From the NCBI RefSeq assembly GCF_004010195.1, contig NC_057757.1, forward strand, positions 5,286,103 through 5,337,781: a stretch of 51,679 bases of DNA, written 5' to 3'. Source of the stretch: Chiloscyllium plagiosum. Taxonomy: Eukaryota. The translations under genes and the position numbers were made by a program. Below the pieces are notes generated by a model that was not told where the DNA came from, did not search any database, and saw only the letters and a program-made list of their open reading frames with translations. Positions 1 to 22,845 of this stretch are shown here, piece after piece. Position 1 is the first letter of the stretch; each line of letters begins with the position of its first letter.

Positions 1-122
1 TCTCCACGCTTCAGGCACTCTGCCTTTATTCCTGATGAAGGGCTTTTGCCCGAAACGTCGATTTTGCCTGTCCTCGGATGCTGCCTGAATTGCTGTGCTC
101 TTCCAGCACCACTGATCCAGAA
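1..122 (+). mobile_element. Penelope-like element 3' end (pLTR) with hammerhead core at 32-59
   Basis: CTGATGA-A-GGGC-TTTT-GCCC-GAAAC-GTC. The same terminus is attached to Penelope coding sequence at 22015-22845. Confidence 0.8.
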
Positions 123-932
123 AATGATACTGAATACTTTGGTTGCTGAAGAATTCTGACTTTAACATTACAGAAGGGGTGACTAATAACTGCCAAGTGG
201 TGGTGTTTTAAGATTTTCTGACAGCATTGCCCTACTACCTCTATCCCCATCCCTGCCAATTCCAAGTGTTATTTCATTCTTCAGTTTATTTCAGTGACCC
301 TGCTTTATCCCTTTCCAATAAAGGGCTTGTTTTTTCCCATTGATGCCTGCAGTTGAACCCAGCAGCAACCTTCAAATATTGACACTGGAGAAAAGATAGG
401 GGAATAAATAAAAAATAATGAGCCTCACTCCTGCTTTCTGTCACGTAACCCTTCCTGTCACTTACTCATTCCCCAAGCCTGGGGCCACAGGATATTAGCC
501 TTGGGATACAACCAACAATTTATTGGATGGTGAGCAGCTTTCATGTATAGGATTAGCCTTCCTGAAAAAGGATTGCTGGAATGCTGGGTATAGGTTGGAA
601 AGCTCAAGCACACTTCCATCTTCAGTTTCAAACTTTATTAATTAATAAAACATGAATGATATTATCATGTGTACATCTCAACATGTACTCTATATATATA
701 TATAAAATGCCTCTTTTCAATCGTACCAGTCTCTTTTTATTTCTCCTCCTCCCCTTCTCAACTTAGAGCATGGCCCCTTCTGTAGCACCCTCCCCTCGGG
801 ATCAAATGTTTGTGAGTTCATGCAGTTTGTTTATTTAGCGAATGCAACTCTCCAAAACCAATCAATTTCCTGTTCATGTGCTACATTATCTGTGTCTCTC
901 CACATGACCATGTGAGGCTTGTACCGAGGCTA

Positions 933-1670
933 GTTTCATCACCATACTAGGTAACATCATCAGTGAGCCTCCGGTGAAGTGCTGGTGTTACACCCCACTT
1001 TCTATTTATCTGTTTAGGTTCCCTTGGGTTGGTGATGTCATTTCCTGTTCTTTTCCTTAGAGGGTGGTAGATGGGGTCCAAATCAACTTTTTTTCTGATA
1101 GAATTCCAGTTGGAGTGCCATCCTTCTAGGAATTCTCATGCATGTCTCTGTTTGGCTTGTTCTAGGATGGATGTGTTGTCCCAGTCAAAGTGGTGTCCTT
1201 CCTCATCTGTATGTAAAGATACTAGTGAGAGAGAGTCATACTGTTTTGTGGCTAGTTGATGTTCATGTATCCTGGCGGTTATTTTTCTGCCTGTTTGTCC
1301 AATGTAGTGTTTGTTACAGTTCTTGCACAGTATTTTGAAGATGACATCAGTTTTGCTTGTTGTTTATATAGGGTCTTTTAAGTTCATTAGTTGCTGTTTT
1401 CGTGTGTTCGTGGGTTTGCAAGCTACCATGTTGCCAAACAGTCTGAGTAGTCTGGCAGCCATTTCCAAGATGTCGTTGATGTAGGGGAGAGTGGCTCGGG
1501 TTTCTGGACGCATTGTGTTTGTTTGAGTTTGTTGTTGAGAAATCGGCGGATTGTGTTCATTGAGTACCTGTTCTTTTTGAATAGGCTGCATAGGTGGTTT
1601 TCCTCTGCACTTCGTAGTTCCTCTGTGCTGCAGTGTGTGGAGGCTCGTTGAAATAGAGTTTGGCTACCCA
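933..1670 (-). mobile_element. Penelope-like retroelement fragment (RT C-terminus/linker, decayed GIY-YIG, pLTR with hammerhead core at 963-933)
   Basis: Minus-strand peptides TLFQRASTHCSTEELRSAEENHL...KNRY and ATLPYINDILEM are typical of the PLE ORF; the element ends in CTGATGA-stem-GAAAC. Confidence 0.8.
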
Positions 1671-3337
1671 AAAGCCCCTGATGTATCTTATTTAGTAAGA
1701 GTCTAGTATTAAGGGGTTTGAGTTTCAGGTTTCCAGTGTGGTACCACATTGTAAAAGGTATTGATCTATTTTGGTTGAGAAGTTAAACAGAATACTAGTT
1801 CCTGGCAGGATGGTAGAGAGCCCTTAAGCATATTCAGTGAGGATCGACACATTGTTCTGATCGCCGATCACCTTCCCTTCAAACAGAACCATTAAGGGAG
1901 GAATTGGACATACAAACAGTAAGACAACTGTCTCTGCCAACGATTACGATGTTTTGTGTGAAGTGCTTGGGCATGTCCAGTGTTATGGACGTGGTGCTAA
2001 TCATTGCAGATAAAGTAAACAAAAGGATGAAGAAAACCAGTTTAAAGTGAAGATTTTGGGCTTAAAGTTCAGGTTAAGAGGAGATCTGAATCTGATTGGT
2101 GATTTTTCAAACAGCAAAAATGAAAACAAATGAATGTGCATTAATAAAATACTGCAGTAAAACAAAGACAGAAAGTGCTGGAGAGTCTCAGCGGGTCTGG
2201 CAGCATCTGTGGAGAGAGAAGCAAATAATGCTTCACATCCAATTTGACTCTTCTTCAGAACTGAAAGGGATTGGAAGTTGTTTTATTATTTTGTTATATT
2301 ATAGATGGTGTAGCGGCCCTGTGCAAAAGACAGAGGGTTTGTTAATGGTGGTAAAAGAGAAAAAGGCCTTTCTGTCCTGGATCTGTTACAATGTTCTAAT
2401 GAAGCACAACAAAAGTTTGAGGAACAACTCCTTATTTTCCACTTCAGCATTTTACAGCCTCTAAGACTCAACATCAAAACTTGAATGTTCTCTATTTTAC
2501 TTAGATTCTATCTCCACCAACCCCCAGTTTTGACTGGTTTACTTTTCTCTCTTTAAAAAAAAGCCTTTCTCTCCCTTTCATACATTAATTTAACATGACC
2601 TCCCAACAGTGTGACCGTCTCCACAATAGGTTAGGTGCTCACTGGTAGGTTTCAACTTCACCCCAACAGAATGGGATTGAAACTCTATGATGTCAGCATC
2701 AATCTGATCTACACCAGTCATCCAGTCAACTGAGCAATCAACTATCCCATCCCTAATGTGGCTAGAGCAGCATACATTGTAACCCAGACCAGTTGGTAAT
2801 ACTGGTAGAGGCTGCAATTATTTTAGCTCCTACACATGGCTGACCAGTAATCTCTCCTCATCCTACTGCATACGATTTGCATGTGTTGCAAAGATTGATA
2901 CATGACCCGTTTGGCCAAGTTAGGAATGCATCTTCATTGCCTGTCCAGTCCTGGTGTCGATCCTGAACCCACAGCCACCACCTTAGAGGCAGGGATACTA
3001 CTACTTCCAAGACTCCCTTAAACAATAATCAGCAGGACATTCCATCATGGAGTTCAGGTCTAATCCTCTTGTAACTCTTGCATCTGAATATGTATACATT
3101 TAGTTGGGAATCACTGGGAAATTTTCTGGCCTTTTTTTTACTGACTAGGCTTTTGACACCAATTGTAGCATTCTTGTTTGTTTCCTTCAGTAAATGCTGA
3201 AGTAAAGCATTGTTGTGATCCCATTGTACTGAGCTATCTAGTATTGGAGAACAGAACTGGAAGCCAATATTGATACCTTGTGTTCCTGACTCACAATGTT
3301 GTGCAATAAAGGGTGGGGGTGGCGGGGGAGTGATAGT

Positions 3338-3510
3338 CATAGAGCCATAGACTGGTACTGCATGGAAATAGACCCTTCAGTCCAATTCATCCATACCAAC
3401 CAGATTTCCTAAATTAATCTAGTCCCATTTGCCAGCATTTGGCCCATAACCCTCTAAATCCTTTCTATTCATGTACCCATCCTGATGCCTTTTAAATGTT
3501 GTTATTGTAT
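3338..3510 (-). mobile_element. CR1 3' end
   Basis: Reverse complement of the tail at 4840-5010. Confidence 0.85.
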
Positions 3511-3511
3511 C

Positions 3512-3858
3512 GAGTCATACAGTTGGTAGAATCTCTGCAGTATGGAAGCAGACCATTTGGTCCTTTCAGTCCACATTGACCCTCATGAATGACATGCCAT
3601 TCAGACCTACCCTGCTACCTTATTCCCTGTAACCCTACTTTCCCATGGCTAACCCACCTAGTCTGCACATCCCTGCACACTATGACAATTTGGCGTGGCC
3701 AGTCCACCTGCACATCTTTGGAATGTGGGAGGAAACCAGAGCACATGGAGGAAACCCATGCTGACATGGGGAGAATGTGCAAACTCCACACATACAGTGG
3801 CCTGAGGGTGGAATCCAAACTGGGTCCCTAGCACTGTGAGGCAGCAGTGCTAACCATT
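3512..3858 (-). mobile_element. HE1-type tRNA-derived SINE
   Basis: Reverse complement of TGGTTAGCACTGCTGCCTCACAG head, TGTGGAGTTTGCACATTCTCCC body, CR1-like tail. Confidence 0.9.
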
Positions 3859-4359
3859 TAGGATAAGTTCCTTCTCGCATCCATGCTTCACAAACTCTGC
3901 ATCCCTGCCAAATTCAGCACATCTCTAAGAAACATCCCATATATTATGTTTAGAATTAACTCCACTGCAAGGCCTTTGTTGTTATGTGATGTGTCTTTGT
4001 TCTTTGTACATGACCAAGTCCCACAGTAACAATTTGAGATCATGGCAGAAGGTGATGCTACAGGGCCTGGGACAGGAAAATACATCAGAATCCAATAACC
4101 ATGGTTCTGGATCTACAGCGTTTGCAGTGTTCAGGTCATGGACCTGGTGCCATCGTGGTAATGATACTGCATTAGTAAGCCAGAGGCCTAGCCAGTGCTC
4201 AAATTCTGCCATAATAGCTGGTGGGATTTAAATCCAATTAATACGTCTGGAATTGAAAGCTTGTTGCAGTGGGAACTATGAATGAGATTCTTGTAAATAT
4301 CCACCTGGATATTTATAAGAAGTTGCAAAGTTGAAAGCCTAAAAATTTGGCTATGAAGA

Positions 4360-5015
4360 TTCATTCATTGCTTTCTTTTGTTGGTCAGAGTATTGAGTAC
4401 AGGAGTTGGGACGTCATGTTACGGCTGTACAGAACATTGGTTAGGCCACTGTTGGAATATTGCGTGAAATTCTGGTCTCCCTCCTATCGGAAGGATGTTG
4501 TAAAACTTGAAAGGGTTCAGAAAAGATTTACAAGGATGTTGCCAGGGTTGGAGGGTTTGAGCTATAGGGAGAGGCTGAATAGGTTGGGGCTATATTCCCT
4601 GGAGCGTCGGAGGCTGAGGGGTAACCTCATAGAGGTTTATAAAATCATGAGGCACATGGATAGGATAAATAGACAAAGTCTTTTCCCTGGGGTGGGGGAG
4701 TCCAGAACTAGAGGGCATAGGTTTAGGGTGAGAGGGGAAAGATTTAAAAGGGACCACGCAGAGGGTGGTGCCTGTATGAAATAAGCTGGTAGTGGAGGAG
4801 CAAACGAAATGAGAGGAGGTAGTGGAAGCTCGTACAATTACAGCGTTTAAAAGGGACCAGGATAGCTACATGAATAAGAAGGATTTCGAGGGATATGGGC
4901 CAAGTGTTGGCAAATGTGACTAGATTAGGTTGGGATATCTGGTCAGCATGGACAAGTTGGACCGAAGTGTCTGTTTCCGTGCTGTATATCTCTGACTCTG
5001 ATTCTGACTCTGATT
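4360..5015 (+). mobile_element. CR1 LINE 3' fragment
   Basis: LYRTLVRPLLEYCVKFWSP...LERVQKRFTRM; (CTCTGA)n tail. Confidence 0.93.
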
Positions 5016-6007
5016 GTAGGTCAGATCTGTCTTTGGACAGGGACCTGAAGAAAAAGAACGATTCTTTAGCAGCACCTTGAAATAATGGCGAAGTGGAGTA
5101 AGTGCTTTTAGAACTGTCAGCTCATCATGAAAAATAACTTTCAGAAAGGGGGGAAACATAAAAGATTTTGTTTTAGGGAAGCAAGAGGGTTTGTCTCTTA
5201 TACTGGCTTAACCCGCTTATGCTATGCGCTAACAGTCTAGTTGAGTGAAAAAATACACCACCCCAAAATCTAACTGGTGAAAATGTAATCTCTGTTGTTG
5301 ATTGCACATCTGAATGGCAAAATTGTGGAACTGATGCAAGAAGTGAGATGTACAAAACCACAAAATGAGGTTTACACAGACAATCTAACATGTTTGTTAC
5401 ACAGGTTTGCAACTAATCTCCTCAGTTGAAGGGTCAATGATAAAGGGACATACTTTTAAATGAAACACAGGAGGTTTACAGGAGATTTGAGGAAACATTT
5501 TTTCACCCAGAGGATGATGGGAATCTGGAATACATTGCCTGAGAGGGTGTTTGAGGTGGGAAACCTCACAGCCTTTAAAAATAATGTGGATGAGTAGTTG
5601 AAATGACATAATATTCAAGGTTATGGGCCAAGAGCTGGATAGTGCGTTTAATGTAGCTTTTGAGTATCTTTGAAGGTGGAGACTCATTGAATAATAGAAT
5701 CATACAGTACCTTTAACCCAAAGGTCACATCTGTACATGTCAGGGTTACTTAAAAAAAATCCTGTTTATCAGTGACCACTGCTCTTTTATGTTTTGAGTA
5801 TTTGTATTGCAGTGTTTATCCTCAAGAACAGAGAAAGAAGTTCATAGCCCCTCTGTTTCAATATAAAGTTTGCACCCATTTTTTAGTCCAGGATGGTCAG
5901 CTCCTTTTCTGATGGTTCAATTAGGCCCTAGCACCCATTAAGAACCAACTTTGTTATCATTGACAGTTTATTTTGAGCTAATCGATCTCAGACAAGATAA
6001 TAGTTGA

Positions 6008-6350
6008 GGGTGGCACAGCGGCTCAGTGGTTAGCTTGCTGCCTCATAGTGCCAGGGACGTGGGTTTGCACAGGGCCTCGGGCAACTGTCTGTGTGGAGCT
6101 TGCACATTCTTTCCATGTCTGTGTGGGTTTTCTCCGGGTGCTCTGGTTTCCTCCCATGATCCAAAGCTGTGCAGGCCAGCTGAATTGGCCATGCTAAATT
6201 GCCCATCATGTTCAAGGATGTGTAGATCAGGTGCTTTATTCAGGGGTTAATATAGGGTAAGAGAATGGGTCTGCGTGGGTTACTCTTCGGAGGGTCTGTG
6301 TGGACTTGTTGAGCTGAAGGGCCTGATTCCAAACTGTAGGGATTCTATGG
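6008..6350 (+). mobile_element. HE1-type SINE
   Basis: A-box GGCTCAGTGG head, conserved body and tail. Confidence 0.9.
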
Positions 6351-6545
6351 ATCATATGAATAGTTGGAAAGATAGAACTGGCAACTAATTTAAAGGATCA
6401 GCTTAGTGGACCCTCATTGGACAGTTTGCAATCAGTGAACCTCTTCTGTATGTCAGTACAGTGATGAGAAATGTAGAGTTAATGATTGGAATAGATAGAG
6501 AACAAATGTGTTTGCTCATGGTGTAAATTATTCAGAAGTTAGTAC

Positions 6546-7197
6546 AGTTATGGACCTCAAAATATATAGAGAAGATAGTCTAGACTCTTAACTTTTTCTT
6601 ATTTTAAAGGTAAATGTAAGGTGTTGTGTTCCAGATGCAATTCGATTGGTCAGACCTCTTGATGTTAAGCATACCACATTTTATTTTTACCCCACATTTA
6701 AATTCAGACAAAAAAAGAATTGGTTTAACTGTAACTCTATCTCACTGCTTAACAAAATAATAGATATATTAACTACTACTAATTAACTGTTCCAATGTTC
6801 CAGTTTAGTAACATCCCATAAACACACCCTTGGCAAAAGGCAAAATTCAGTAAAATAGATTGTCTCACAGACAATTCTCTAGTCCAGGAGGAAAAACATC
6901 AAGAGAAAACTCAGAGAGAGAGTAGCAGGGAGAGATGTACTGCAGCTTCTAAACCCAGCTTCAAGACCCCAGCAACAACTGTATTTGAAAAACTAAAAAC
7001 CCTGTTTCTATAGGAGCTTGACCCCACTATTCAGGCTGCTTCTGTTGTTCCAGTCTTAGGAAACAAAAAATCATAATGCCTCACAAGCTGTTTATTTTAT
7101 GAGCTTTGAAGCACACCGATCATCACCTCTTATCTCAATCTTTCTTCATTTTAAAAAAAGGACTAAGTACACCTCTTAAAGCCATGGTATTGTCACA
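6546..7197. mobile_element. Probable solo LTR (Gypsy-like)
   Basis: 652-bp segment with ends AGTTA.../...TGTCACA and a 4-bp duplication GTAC at 6542-6545 and 7198-7201; non-coding. Confidence 0.6.
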
Positions 7198-8325
7198 GTA
7201 CTGAGATGTACAATGGCAATTTTCAGTTATAACTCCATTCAGATGCTTGACATGGCTCGAGAATGGGCACTGAGCAACAAAGGAAATAATTGAACAGAGT
7301 GAAAGGTTTTAAAGAACGTTATAGAGGAGGAAGGAGAGGTAGAAAGATTCAGGCAGGGAATTCCAGAGGTCTAAGCCAAAATGTCTGAAGACACAGCCAC
7401 TAACAGTGAGGATGAAGGAAGTAGGTGAATGCATATCTCAGGCAAGATTGGAATTTTTCCACAAGATTTGAGCGCCACTGATATTTGTTTGTTATTCCTA
7501 ACTGCCCTTGAATTGAGTGTTTTGCTTTCCCATATTAGAGGACTGTTTCCAGTTAGTCACATTGCTGTGGGTCTGGAGTCACATAAAGGCCAGGGGAGAG
7601 TCGTGGCTTTTTACAGCATCCCAGTAGCCTCAGTCACTGTGACTGATATTAGCTTTTTATTCCAGATTTATTTAATTCATTAAACATACATTGCCCAAGC
7701 TGTCAAGGTAAGGTTTGAATTCATGTCTCAGTATCATTAGTCCAAGCCACTGAATTATCATCCTTACAGGGCTCAACAGAGTAGATGCAGGAAGGATGTT
7801 TCCCATGGCTGAAGGGCCCAGAACAGGAGACACACTCAAAGATTAAGGGACAGGTCATTTCACACTAAGAAATGTCTTCACTCAGATAATGGCAAACTCA
7901 GAGAGCTGTGGAGGCTTAGTTATTGAATATGTGCAAGAGAGAGATCGTTAGATTGATAGATATTTAAAGGTGTCAAGGATTTTGGGAATAGTGCGCAAAA
8001 ATGGCTTTGAGGCAGATGATTTTGTTGAAAGGTAGAGTGGGTCAGAGGGGCCAAACACCCCACTCCCAGTCTTAAGTCCATAATTCCCTATGTAACACAG
8101 GCACTTTAATATCACTGTTTAGGAATATAGGAACACAGATGTAGGCCATTCAGCCCATCAAGCCTGCCCCACTATTAAATATGATCTTGGCTGATCAAAC
8201 ACTTTAAATGGCCTTTTCCTCCCGCTATCCACACAACACTATATGCCAATCTAAAGTAGAAATCTACCTATCTCTCATAGGTCACATGAGCAGTCACCTC
8301 ATTCTTTGAAACTCTTGTGAATTCA

Positions 8326-10240
8326 AGAACATTAGAACATAGAACATTACATTACAGTGCAGTACAGGCCCTTTGGCCCTCGATGTTGCACCGCCCTAAT
8401 CTGAAGCCCATCCCACCTACACTATTCCATGTACGTCCATATGCCTGTCCAATGACGACTTAAATGCACTTAAACTTGGCGAATCTACTACCGTTGCAGG
8501 CAAAGCATTCCATACCCTTACTACTCTCTGAGTAAAGAAACTACCTCTGACATCTGTCTTATACCTATCTCCCCTCACTTTAAAGTTGTGTCCCCTCGTG
8601 TTTGCCATCCCCATACTTGGAAAAAAGGCTCTCCCTATCCACCCTATCTAACCCTCTGATTATCTTGTATGTCTCTATTAAGTCACCTCTCAACTTTCTT
8701 CTCTCTAAAGAGAACAGCCTCAAGGCCCTCAGCTTTTCTTCGTAAAACATTCCTTCCATACCAGGCAACATCCTAGTAAATCTCCTCTGCACCCTTTCCA
8801 AAGTTTCCACATCCTTCTTATAATACGGTGACCAGAACTGTACACAATACTCCAAGTGCGGCCGTACCAGAGCTTTGTACAACTGCAGCATAACCTCCTG
8901 GTTCTGGAACTCAATTCCTCTATTAATAAAGGCCAAAACACTGTATGCCTTCTTAACAACTCTGTCAATCTGGGTGGCAACTTTCAGGGATCTGTGTACA
9001 GGGACACCGAGATCTCTCTGTTCATCTGCATTCCCAAGAAACTTACCATTAGCCCAGTACTTTACATTACTCCGTCCAAAGTGTATCACCTCACACTTGT
9101 CCACATTAAACTTCATTTGCCACCTCTCAGCCCAGCCCTGCATACTATCTATATCTCTCTGCAACCTACTACATCCTTCGTCACTATCCACAACTCCACC
9201 GACCTTAGTGTCGTCCGCAAATTTACTAACCCACCCTTCTAAGCCCTCATCCAGGTCATTTATAAAAATGACGAATAGCAGTGGACCCAACTCCGACCCT
9301 TGCGGTACGCCGCTAGTAACTGGACACCAAGATGAACATGTTCCATCAACTACAACCCTCTGTTTTCTTTCAGCAAGCCAATTACTGATCCAAACTGCTA
9401 TGTCTCCCACAATCCCATTCCTCCGCATTTTGTATAATAGCCTACTGTGGGGAACCTTATCGAACGCCTTGCTGAAATCCATATACACCACATCAACCTG
9501 TTTACTCTCATCTACCTGTTTGGTCACTTTGTCAAAAAACTCAATAAGACTCGTTAGGCACGACCTACCCTTCACAAAACCGTGCTGACTGTCCCTGATC
9601 AGATTATTCTTTTCTAGCTGGTTATAAATCCTAACTCTTATAATCTTTTCCAACACTTTACCAACAACTGAAGTGAGACTCACTGGTCTGTAATTACCAG
9701 GGTTGTCTCTGTTACCCTTTTTGAACAAGGGAACCACATTTGCTATCCTCCAGTCCTCAGGCACTATTCTTGTAGACAACGATGATTTGAAGATCAATGC
9801 CAAAGGCTCGGCAATCTCTTCCCTTGCATCCCTGAAGATCCTAGGATAGATCCCATCCGGCCCAGGGGACTTATCTATTTTCACACTCTGCAGTATTTCT
9901 AATACCTCTTCCTTGTGAACCTCAATCTCTTCTAGTCTAGATGCAAGTATCTCTGTATCTTCCTCACCAACATTTTCATTTTCTATAGTGAACACTGTCG
10001 AAAAATAGTTATTTAGTGCTTCCCCTATCTCCTCTGACTCCACACACAACTTCCCACTATTATCCTTGATTGGCCCTAACTTAACTCTCGTCATTCTTTT
10101 ATTCCTGACATACCTATGAAAAACCTTAGGGTTAACCCAGATCCTATCTGCCAACAACTTCTCATGTCTCCTCCTGGCTCTTCTGAGCTCTTCTTTTAGG
10201 TCTTTCCTGACTTCCTCGTAACCCTCAACCGCCCTAACTC
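8326..10240 (-). mobile_element. Young 5'-truncated CR1 (HER1-type) LINE with a near-intact RT domain, antisense in the last EPO intron
   Basis: 525-aa ORF with KSPGPDG, NYRPVSLTS, QHGF, DFSKAFD, PQGS, FADD. One frameshift in an A-run near 8620 separates the C-terminus (ORF 8417-8614); (AGAACAT)n tail. Confidence 0.97.
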
Positions 10241-10764
10241 TGGCCGAGTTTGCTCAATTACTCTTTGTAGGGCACTCCCCATCGATTTGGGAACAAGTCT
10301 GGTGAATCTTCATCACATTTCCTCTGTAGCAAAAATATCTTTCCTGAGACAAGGAGACCAAAACTGCTCACAGCACTACAAGGTGCAGTCTGACCAATTC
10401 AATGGAAGTAAGACTTTATTACTCCTGTACTCAAATCCTCCTTCAATAAAGGCTGACATTTCATTAGCCCTCCTAAGTTTTGAAAGGCAGGTTCTTACTG
10501 TGGGTCTGTGTGTACAGGAGCTAGATTAAGACTACTCAAAGTGTAATTGCTGCGGACATTTAGCTGAAATTCAGGGGAGAGATAGGTTTATCCCACTGAT
10601 AGAGTGATAGCCCCGAGTGGTCTTTTCCCTAGGTCTCAGTATGGGTCAGGTTTGAATCTAGTTCATTGAGATAAGAGGTTCCCCAGTGCATACCTACAGT
10701 GCTTTCTTTTCCTGCTGGTTGGTTTTGTTACATCTCAAACAAGTCGTCTTTTGCTTTTGTGCAG

Positions 10765-10911
10765 GATATCCTAAATCGGGAACGGGAGCTGCAGACCACT
10801 TTTAACACGAGAACACTGAGAACCATTTTTCACGCATATTTAAATTTCCTACAAGGTAAAGTCAGACTGTTTTTCCTGGACACAGAAGCTTGCAATCTGG
10901 CGACAAGCTGA
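10765..10911 (+). CDS. EPO: Erythropoietin-like gene, terminal coding exon (helix D): DILNRERELQTTFNTRTLRTIFHAYLNFLQGKVRLFFLDTEACNLATS*
   Basis: Acceptor tcttttgcttttgtgcag|GAT, phase 0 like the last EPO intron. The peptide aligns with the human EPO C-terminus TFRKLFRVYSNFLRGKLKLYTGEAC (F..Y.NFL.GK...EAC). The stop follows the last Cys closely (EPO-like, no THPO tail). A POP7 remnant lies nearby. Upstream exons were not found in 1-10764. Confidence 0.88.
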   Translation, partial: DILNRERELQTTFNTRTLRTIFHAYLNFLQGKVRLFFLDTEACNLATS

Positions 10912-11560
10912 CAGCCCCAGCTGAACACCAGCAGACTCTCAAAGAGCTTCCGAAACAGATTATAAGCTGTAACCTTTGCATTCTAAGCACAACACTGTAT
11001 AGCACCAAAAAGGAGCGTAGAGGGAAGGAACAAAGATAATAGGGAAAAGAAGAAGATGGTCTGGTTCATTTGGAATATAATGTTCGGAAGAGGAGCTGAA
11101 TATCCAATGGTATACTGCCTGGATAACTCAGCCATGGAGACTGTGGTAATCGGGATAGAAGCACTCACAAATTTTTGAACTCGAGAGAGAGAGAAAGAGA
11201 AAATACGACACCTAAGGAGCCATTTTGAGTATGACAGATCTACAGCAGAAAGTGTCTTTTTATTGATGGTGTCGCTCGCTGTTGACGGCATTGTTTTATA
11301 GAGTTCTGTGCAGACTGGACACGCAGGTTTCATGTCTTTTGTACCTTTTAAGCTCTATTACGCCTCAGATCTTTGTTATTGCTTAACCTGTGGACTTAAG
11401 TTCACTGGTAACCTGTAAAAATGATGAGAATTTAATTGAATGTTTCATTGAATTGTGTGTGTGAAGGAGGAGACAGAAAGGGTTAATACTATTGCTGAGT
11501 CATTGTAGATCAGCTCGATGTTTATTAAAATATTATATCTATTTAAACATATTTATTTGT
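10912..11560 (+). other. Probable EPO 3' UTR with ATTAAA (11524-11529) and ATTTA elements (11541, 11551)
   Basis: Repeat-free unique sequence after the stop; the motifs are seen directly, but the true 3' end is unknown. Confidence 0.45.
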
Positions 11561-17762: not shown

Positions 17763-19749
17763 CAAGTGTCAGTGGGGGAGCACTTTGGGGCCAGCGACCA
17801 TAATTCTATTTGTTTTAAAATAGTGATGGAAAAAGATAGACCAGATCTAAAAGTTAAAGTTCTAAATTGGAGAAAGGCCAATTTTGACGATATTAGGCAA
17901 GGACTTTCGAAAGCTGATTGGAGGCAGATGTTTGCAGGTAAAGGGACGGCTGGAAAATGGGAAGGCTTCAGAAATGAGATAACAAGAATCCAGAGAAAGT
18001 ATATTCCTGTCAAGGTGAAAGGGAAGGCTGGTAGGTATAGGGAATGCTGGATGACTAAAGAAATTGAGGGTTTGGTTAAGAAAAAGAAGGAAGCATATGT
18101 CAGGTATAGACAGGACAGATCGAGTGAATACTTAGAAGAGTATAAAGGCAGTAGGAGTATACTTAAGAGGGAAATCAGGAGAGCAAAAAGGGGACATTCG
18201 ATAGTTTTGGCAAATAGAATTAAGGAGAATCCAAAGAGTTTTACAAATATATTAAGGACAAAAGGGTAACTAGAGAGAAATAGGGCCCCTCAAAGATCAG
18301 CAAGGCAGCCTTTGTGTGGAGCCACAGAGAATAGGGGAGATACTAAATATTTTGCATCAGTATTTACTGTGGAAAAGGATATGGAAGATATAGACTGTAG
18401 GGAAATAGATGATGACATCTTGCAAATGTCCAGATTACAGAGGAGGAAGTGCTGGATGTCTTGAAACAGTTAAAGGTGGATAAATCCCCAGGACCTGATC
18501 AGGTGTACCCGAGAACTCTGTGGGAAGCTAGAGAAGTGACTGCATGCCTCTTGCTGAGATAGTTGTATCATCGATAGTCACAGGTGAGGTGCCGGAAGAC
18601 TGGAGGTTGGCAAACGTGGTGCCACTGTTTAAGAAGGGCGGTAAAGACAAGCCAGGGAACTATAGACCAGTGAGCCTGACCTCAGTGGTGGGCAAGTTGT
18701 TGGAGGGAATCCTGAGGGACAGGATATGCATGTATTTGGAAAGACAAGGACTAATTCGGGATAGTCAACATGGCTTTGTGCATGGGAAATCATGTCTCAC
18801 AAACTTGATTGAGCTTTTTGAAGAAGTAACAAAGAAGATTAATGAGGGCAGAGCAGTAGATGTGATCTATATGGACTTCAGTAAGGCATTCGACAAGGTT
18901 CCCCATGGGAGANNNNNNNNNNNNNNNNNNNNNNNNNNNNNNNNNNNNNNNNNNNNNNNNNNNNNNNNNNNNNNNNNNNNNNNNNNNNNNNNNNNNNNNN
19001 NNNNNNNNNNNNNNNNNNNNNNNNNNNNNNNNNNNNNNNNNNNNNNNNNNNNNNNNNNNNNNNNNGGAGTGCAGGTTCATAGCTCCTAGAAAGTGGAGTC
19101 ACAGGTAGATAGGATAGTGAAGAAGGCGTTTGGTATGCTTTCCTTTGTTGGTCAGAGCATTGAGTACAGGAGTTGAGAGATCATGTGTGGCTGTACAGGA
19201 CATTGGTTAGGCCACTGTTGGAATATTGCATGCAATTCTGGTCTCCTTCCTATCGGAAAGATGTTGTGAAACTTGAAAGGGTTCAGAAAAGATTTACAAG
19301 GATGTTGCCAGGGTTGGAGGATTTGAGCTACAGGGAGAGGCTGAATAGACTGGGGCTGTTTTCCCTCATGCGTCGGAGGCTGAGGGGTGACCTTATAGAG
19401 GTTTACAAAATTATGAGGGGCATGGATAGGATGAATAGACAAGGTCGGGGAGTCCAGAACTAGAGGGCATAGGTTTAGAGTGAGGGGAAAGATATAAAAG
19501 AGACATAAGGGGCAACTTTTTCACGCAGCGGATGGTATGTGTATGGAATGAGCTGCCAGGGGATGTGGTGGAGGCTGGTACAACTGCAACATTTAAGAGG
19601 CATTTGGATGGGAATATGAATAGAAAGGGTTTGGAGGGATGTGGGTTGGGTGCTGGCAGATGGGACTAGATTGGGTTGGGATATCTGGTCGGTATGGACA
19701 GGTTTGACCGAAGAGTCTGTTTCCATGCTGTATATCTCTAAGACTCTAA
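17763..19749 (+). mobile_element. CR1 LINE ORF2 fragment (end of endonuclease through RT and 3' tail), frameshifted, spanning an N gap
   Basis: ASDHNSI, NWRKANF, NYRPVSLTS, DFSKAFD, LVRPLLEYC; flanked by ATAGAAAA on both sides. Confidence 0.95.
18913..19065. other. Assembly gap (N run)
   Basis: Run of n inside a CR1. Confidence 1.
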
Positions 19750-22014: not shown

Positions 22015-22845
22015 GTAAAAACAATGACTGCAGATGCTGGAAACCAGATTTTGGATTAGTGGTGCTGGAAGAGCACAGCAGTTCAGGCAGCATCCGAGGA
22101 GCAGCAAAATCGACGTTTCGGGCAAAAGACCTTCATCAGGAATAAAGGCAGTGAGCCTGAAGCGTGGAGAGATAAGCTAGAGGAGGGTGGGNNNNNNNNN
22201 NNNNNNNNNNNNNNNNNNNNNNNNNNNNNNNNNNNNNNNNNNNNNNNNNNNNNNNNNNNNNNNNNNNNNNNNNNNNNNNNNNNNNNNNNNNNNNNNNNNN
22301 NNNNNNNNNNNNNNNNNNNNNNNNNNNNNNNNNNNNNNNNNNNNNNNNNNNNNNNNNNNNNNNNNNNNNNNNNNNNNNNNNNNNNNNNNNNNNNNNNNNN
22401 NNNNNNNNNNNNNNNNNNNNNNNNNNNNNNNNNNNNNNNNNNNNNNNNNNNNNNNNNNNNNNNNNNNNNNNNNNNNNNNNNNNNNNNNNNNNNNNNNNNN
22501 NNNNNNNNNNNNNNNNNNNNNNNNNNNNNNNNNNNNNNNNNNNNNNNNNNNNNNNNNNNNNNNNNNNNNNNNNNNNNNNNNNNNNNNNNNNNNNNNNNNN
22601 NNNNNNNNNNNNNNNNNNNNNNNNNNNNNNNNNNNNNNNNNNNNNNNNNNNNNNNNNNNNNNNNNNNNNNNNNNNNNNNNNNNNNNNNGTTACGGTTGGA
22701 GGGGTGGGGTCTGAGGGCGGAGGTGCGGGATGTGGACGAGATGCGTTGTAGGGCATCTTTAACCACGTGGGAAGGGAAATTGCGGTCTCTAAAGGAGGAG
22801 GCCATCTGGTGTGTTCTGTGGTGGAACTGGTCCTCCTGGGAGCAC
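22015..22845 (-). mobile_element. Penelope-like element spanning an assembly gap
   Basis: Peptide CSQEDQFHHRTHQMASSFRDRNFPSHVVKDAL; pLTR with hammerhead core at 22111-22140. Confidence 0.8.
22192..22688. other. Assembly gap (N run)
   Basis: Run of n inside a Penelope-like element. Confidence 1.

Follow-up and report, generated by a model that had tools for sequence, protein, structure and literature searches.

Why would a residue that causes anaemia in man be the normal one in a shark? This question is raised by a stretch of DNA from Chiloscyllium plagiosum (GCF_004010195.1, NC_057757.1, positions 5,286,103-5,337,781 of the forward strand; 51,679 nt), which in its whole length is referred to here as the window. 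An exon in it codes for Gln at the position of Arg150 of human erythropoietin (EPO), which is the same residue at the same aligned position as in the human variant p.R150Q (c.530G>A, p.R177Q) that causes a severe inherited Diamond-Blackfan-like anaemia. The original prediction had stated that this anaemia is due to altered receptor binding kinetics, and reviews and a case report uphold this: R150Q lowers the affinity about threefold, makes both the on-rate and the off-rate faster, impairs dimerisation and causes a selective loss of signalling (PMC7503180, PMC12572591, PMC5760853). Table 3 of PMC4405594 lists F93, H114, N116, E117, P203 and S204 of the EPO receptor (EPOR) as the neighbours of human Arg150, and in a simulation R150Q loses the interaction with E117 while the other contacts stay (PMC6197206).

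The Gln codon and the exon that carries it

The coding part of the last EPO exon lies at 10765..10911 of the window on the plus strand and consists of 48 codons and a TGA stop, 147 bases in phase 0, as shown by the Pfam family EPO_TPO and by exon joining. It is preceded on the same strand by an AG splice acceptor at 10763..10764 and by the 3' part of the last intron (1..10764), which from the family search of the genome and exon joining measures about 15.9 kb overall. Translation of 10843..10860 (+) bears out the reading NFLQGK, which corresponds to human residues 147-152, with the Gln codon CAA at 10852..10854. In the alignment to human EPO 132-162, which is free of gaps around the site, this Gln is opposite Arg150 in helix D, in receptor site 1; N147, F148, L149, G151 and K152 of human EPO are kept and the shark differs by Gln150. 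The other exons that were located lie upstream of the window, namely exon 2 (G000:C48:5247606-5247736), exon 3 (G000:C48:5265281-5265367) and exon 4 (G000:C48:5280819-5280983). Exons 2 to 5 measure 131, 87, 165 and 147 bases, have GT-AG ends, are separated by introns of 15-17 kb and join in one frame that is identical over 175 residues to P0192, named Chiloscyllium plagiosum erythropoietin by its source; exon 1 was not located. Annotated EPO isoforms that skip the 87-base exon 3 are found repeatedly, namely in sharks, a ray, gar, a caecilian and a turtle (P0001, P0005, P0008, P0014, P0027, P0040, P0044), and they resemble the human EV-3 splice variant, which lacks exon 3. A stretch of 22 residues before the usual signal-peptide Met is conserved among elasmobranchs, reedfish and gar (P0003, P0021, P0027).

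Eight public runs were compared with the window over 10700-11300. The codon is covered by seven of them, from seven studies and three organism codes, and none of the seven differs from CAA, so that the suspicion of an assembly error at 10853 that had turned CGA into CAA is not borne out; these seven are contigs, which drop rare variants, and the sole raw RNA run gave one read, which lies off the codon. Exon 5 is spliced because four of the eight runs (X3, X7, X17 and X20) have contigs that join position 10765 directly to the 3' terminus of exon 4. The same spliced contigs extend the 3' UTR (10912..11300, +) at least to 11300, the edge of the region compared. In organism C the coding part has no differences as against 13 other letters and two indels in the adjoining 3' UTR.

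Further along, an AU-rich stretch is found at 11430-11555, with ATTTA at 11430, 11541 and 11551 and an ATTAAA at 11524 that could mark the 3' end. The hypoxia element TACGTGC has no match on either strand of the window. Among the 210 open frames of at least 62 codons in 10912-51679 no neighbouring protein-coding gene came to light, and a Pfam scan of 212 open frames (these 210 downstream of the exon and two upstream) gave above cut-off only two reverse-transcriptase pieces. Both are LINE-like RVT_1 frames: one at 8583-10253 on the minus strand (E 8.5e-35), open for 557 codons and located inside the last EPO intron, and the other at 18532-18912 on the plus strand (E 1.4e-11). Assembly gaps are present at 18913-19065 and 22192-22688.

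The gene is EPO and not THPO

EPO and thrombopoietin (THPO) belong to one family, and an exon of the latter could be mistaken for one of the former. The exon alone scores 27.4 bits with Pfam EPO_TPO against a curated cut-off of 25, and a search of the whole genome for this family gave six matches on two contigs, four of them in order on C48. In a tree of 53 rows from which the column of residue 150 was omitted, the gene falls inside the EPO clade (33 of the 53 rows) with an SH-aLRT value of 99 by a quick method. The predicted fold of P0192 (pLDDT 77.7) has EPO at ranks 1, 2 and 4 and TPO at rank 3, the margin over TPO being small, and its best Foldseek matches are 1cn4_C and 1eer_A with 34-35% identity. 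POP7 (Rpp20) is located 53 kb upstream of EPO exon 2, and the second family gene, on C13, is about 195 kb from CHRD and 3 Mb from POLR2H. These neighbours are read against the human gene orders, in which EPO lies by POP7 and THPO by CHRD, and the C13 gene is thus THPO by position. The view that the exon belongs to EPO is therefore confirmed by the clade, the closest fold and the POP7 neighbour, and a THPO exon is ruled out since the gene lies outside the THPO clade and the THPO-type gene sits beside CHRD. With the spliced contigs added, 10765-10911 is the last exon of a true EPO, which shares its fold, clade, POP7 neighbour and, as far as exons 2 to 5 go, exon layout with vertebrate erythropoietin (PF00758; human EPO, PDB 1EER and 1CN4).

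The C13 gene (G000:C13:47066583-47092107, minus strand, loci L026-L028) is short, has His at the 150 site and is unusually EPO-like for a gene at the THPO locus: it is identical to human EPO at 9 of 16 site-2 residues and lies between both clades in the tree. The chimaera counterpart, P0039, carries both names in its annotation, erythropoietin and thrombopoietin, and its residue at the 150 site is Gln.

Distribution of Gln150 among vertebrates

All 42 elasmobranch EPO records that contain the last exon have Gln150 (45 were examined and three without this exon were left out), as do all 20 named species of sharks, skates and rays, and Gln is hence the reference allele here, as had been proposed. 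The first search was seeded from this exon and could favour Gln, but no Arg was met in any elasmobranch brought in by the alignment search, the representative search or the cluster lists. Across the 20 species the pentapeptide FLQGK is invariant, and Gln150 is among the 71 of 158 mature EPO positions that do not vary. An assembly error or a private allele is ruled out by the comparison of runs and by the presence of Gln across these records, and that the finding is an artefact in any form, including a THPO exon taken for EPO, has next to no probability, as the tree, the POP7 and CHRD neighbours and the fold contradict it as well and nothing speaks in its favour. The remark that CAA is one transition away from CGA is true but has no bearing on the matter because Gln is fixed across the clade.

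In bony vertebrates Arg150 is found in 18 of 21 EPO rows (23 rows less axolotl, which has no last exon, and reedfish, whose model ends abnormally), and the exceptions are two ranid frogs with Gln and the budgerigar with His. The latter model, P0058, has an odd composition and may be poor. The statement that teleost EPOs retain Arg is correct for the teleost rows in this set; zebrafish EPO, which is outside the set, should have Arg150 too. The ranid frogs are Lithobates pipiens and Aquarana catesbeiana (P0048, P0146-P0150), whose EPO keeps 3 of the 22 human site-1 residues. Since Discoglossus and Xenopus EPO keep Arg150, the simplest account is that Gln arose separately in the ranids. The 20 THPO-type rows are mixed at this site, with Gln in eight, Arg in seven, Lys in two, and Ser, Val and His in one each. 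The adjacent Gly151, which is otherwise conserved, is Trp in two caecilian genera (P0026, P0155-P0158). No EPO orthologue of chimaera, lungfish or coelacanth was recognised among the named matches of the homologue and representative searches, and the one chimaera protein that bears the name erythropoietin clusters with the C13 gene. The extension of the finding to "cartilaginous fish" thus stands for sharks and rays and is otherwise wider than the data.

The receptor surface that faces residue 150

The original prediction had called for a comparison of the site-1 contact residues of EPOR. Among 25 receptor matches in this genome there is one EPOR, at G000:C8:98.31 Mb, with one cytokine-binding module followed by transmembrane and Box1 exons, and one MPL, at C11:24.83 Mb, each with the expected structure. 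Compared to human EPOR the shark receptor has Asn at E117, in a gap-free alignment, and Tyr at 114, and it keeps F93, N116 and S204. In elasmobranch EPORs (17 records, reduced to 14 species by exclusion of one fragment without the region and two second isoforms) residues 114-116 are invariably Y-I-N, and 117 is Asn in five species, His in seven and Tyr in two but never acidic; position 117 would thus be free to vary between invariant neighbours. The receptor surface therefore does differ, and it differs exactly at the spot where Arg150 binds, with no acid at 116 or 117 in any of the 14 species. No bony-vertebrate EPOR was recognised among the named matches of the homologue and representative searches.

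An acid is present at EPOR 117 in human, mouse and Xenopus and at 116 in zebrafish. In Table 3 of PMC4405594 Xenopus EPO R140 pairs with EPOR E108, which are the equivalents of R150 and E117, and supplementary file 4 of PMC1963337 gives the zebrafish sequence as N114-V115-E116-N117, without Glu117. The idea that loss of E117 is unique to sharks was dropped on account of this zebrafish N117/E116 (PMC1963337, same file). E117 alone is not diagnostic because zebrafish has Asn117, and the elasmobranch peculiarity is therefore that there is no acid at either 116 or 117. Receptors of Arg150-type ligands (human, mouse, zebrafish and Xenopus) thus appear to carry an acid at 116 or 117, a rule that was framed after the zebrafish Asn117 had emerged and is post hoc and based on one clade. 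MPL has an acid at 116 in human, mouse and zebrafish and in 11 of 12 MPL-type records, and Ser at 117. In this paralogous pair the acid at 116 stands beside His or Gln in the chondrichthyan ligand and, because of this, the link between acid and Arg is at best one-way. As judged from these alignments, an old Gln would fit the Gln or His in both chondrichthyan ligands and the non-acidic 117 in MPL and zebrafish, and a joint loss in elasmobranchs would fit the acid at 116 in MPL and zebrafish.

In shark EPOR the ligand-binding loop 199-205 (L022:4967-5119) is strongly unlike the human one and resembles those of zebrafish EPOR and MPL; it seems to be the mammals that have the deviant form. G202/V203 as the compensating change in sharks is ruled out since it is common to zebrafish EPOR and partly to MPL. 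The likeness of the loop to that of MPL, together with the EPO-like site 2 of the C13 ligand (9 of 16 residues) and the place of that ligand between both clades, could be taken to mean that receptors and ligands are paired differently in elasmobranchs, with EPO acting partly via MPL or the EPO-like ligand of the THPO locus serving EPOR, so that site 1 is relaxed. We regard this as very improbable because the 25 matches contain just one EPOR and one MPL with the expected structures, the MPL-like loop is also found in zebrafish EPOR, and Gln150 and its surroundings are invariant and not relaxed.

The interface as a whole

The EPO of this shark is identical to human EPO at 8 of 22 residues in site 1 and at 9 of 16 in site 2. 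It keeps three of the nine basic site-1 residues of human EPO, having lost those at 45, 52, 131, 140 and 143, and it has gained Arg at 17 and 49. On the receptor side, human EPOR has eight acidic site-1 contacts, four of which are occupied by non-acidic residues in the shark, as judged by eye and with the register at 60-62 adjoining an insertion. It follows, as far as aligned residues can tell, that Gln150 sits in what appears to be a broadly rebuilt and less charged interface because both basic EPO and acidic EPOR site-1 residues have changed. The loss of E117 is also not improbable by itself since half of these acidic contacts (4/8) are non-acidic. The surprise implied by the original prediction was overstated: site 1 stands at 8/22, the zebrafish receptor also lacks Glu117, Gln is present in ranid EPO and in 8 of 20 THPO-type rows, and deviations of this kind are common.

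These results raise the question whether there is a single compensating site at all. Site 1 could have been rebuilt piecemeal over about 450 million years, with 150 being no hot spot and the missing acid at 116/117 being one of many unrelated changes. This is a serious possibility, if one that we would not bet on: site-1 identity to human is equally low, 7-8 of 22, in elasmobranchs and in four teleost rows, the THPO-type rows show Gln, Lys, Ser, Val and His at the 150 site, and about half of the acidic receptor contacts have changed. Yet 18 of 21 bony-vertebrate rows have kept Arg150 through an equal divergence, and all 20 elasmobranch species have Gln although only 71 of 158 mature positions are invariant in them, which suggests that the position still matters.

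It is also conceivable, albeit unlikely, that Gln150 is tolerated and not compensated, that is, that shark EPO dissociates from its receptor faster, in the manner of human R150Q, and that this is enough for elasmobranch erythropoiesis. A lower body temperature, a slower turnover of red cells or a salt- and urea-rich plasma that weakens charge pairs may allow such tolerance. The shark ligand retains just three of the nine basic site-1 residues of human EPO, and the drop in affinity of human R150Q as given in the available accounts is only about threefold, its effect coming through kinetics. However, teleost EPOs are as poor in basic site-1 residues (4-6 of 22) and have kept Arg150, and ranid frogs, which do not have a urea-rich marine plasma, have Gln150. 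The readings of piecemeal rebuilding, tolerance and altered pairing can overlap.

Explanation and significance

Gln150 is likely to be harmless in sharks and rays, which its fixation in 20 species and the conserved exon suggest, and it is likely to be so because the two facing positions of EPOR, 116 and 117, are not acidic. The explanation that we favour, with confidence a little better than even, is that ligand and receptor each lack their half of the charge pair and that Gln is engaged in uncharged contacts; Gln150 would then be a compensated pathogenic deviation for which the receptor supplies the compensation. As elasmobranch EPOR has no acid at 116-117, there would be no partner for the salt bridge that R150Q breaks in patients. 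What Gln150 would form instead are hydrogen bonds without charge to the patch of Y114, N116 and residue 117, contacts that are taken over from the human complex, inside a site 1 that has also changed by the loss of basic residues and the gain of Arg17 and Arg49. This presumes a shark complex in the same register as the human one, a neutral Gln, and the missing acid as the reason for this neutrality. In R150Q patients Gln faces an intact E117 in an otherwise human interface, whereas the Gln of sharks, which is their fixed wild type, faces Asn, His or Tyr at 117 and lies in an interface that has been rebuilt. What speaks against compensation in the receptor is that the case for it comes from a single evolutionary event.

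Residues that are pathogenic in man and wild type elsewhere are known as compensated pathogenic deviations, a term of Kondrashov's cited in PMC6606640. They are common: that paper counts 122 against 849 for factor VIII and 47 against 344 for factor IX (~12%), and PMC3542581 puts irreversible substitutions in mammals at ~10%. Shark Gln150 is likewise pathogenic in human, wild type elsewhere and accompanied by a candidate second change close in space. Unlike such cases, it has its candidate compensation in another protein, the receptor, and residue 150 contacts that receptor directly; it is less ordinary because such deviations are said to avoid binding residues (PMC6606640, citing Baresic et al.). 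The EPO-EPOR pair of Xenopus laevis is likewise a divergent non-mammalian pair on the same contact table; there R150 and E117 are both kept and EPO activates human EPOR (PMC4405594, Table 3 and accompanying text), while the shark keeps neither residue. Thrombopoietin and MPL have the homologous helix D motif, in which Gln is wild type in THPO-type rows of turtle, newt, snake and frog, with an acid at 116 and Ser at 117 of the receptor; the gene in the window, in contrast, is EPO and not THPO. In the literature searched, including the accessible text of PMC6306437 and PMC4628722, we found no mention of Gln150 in shark or frog EPO and no assay of shark EPO; figures and most subscription journals were outside the scope of this search, and a published alignment may show the residue, which is visible in public protein records.

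Shark Gln150 opens no new kind of system. It carries a warning for variant interpretation, in that R150Q would pass as benign in a deep alignment that contained sharks, ranid frogs or THPO. A bolder idea, which we put forward as rather doubtful, is that the charge pair of EPO150 and EPOR116/117 is a switch for dwell time on the receptor that was turned off at least twice, in elasmobranchs and in ranid frogs. If this were true, red-cell formation in these lineages would rely either on a fast off-rate as in patients or on a substitute contact without charge, and the lineages would be natural reagents for the question whether a long dwell time is needed in erythropoiesis. If Gln were also the older state, the human disease allele would be a forbidden reversion, created by the gain of the acid in the receptor. 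Among human cytokine mutations R150Q is the textbook example of one whose effect comes from binding kinetics and not from affinity, and Gln150 together with a receptor that has no partner acid may serve as a natural double mutant for the role of this contact in dwell time and signalling bias.
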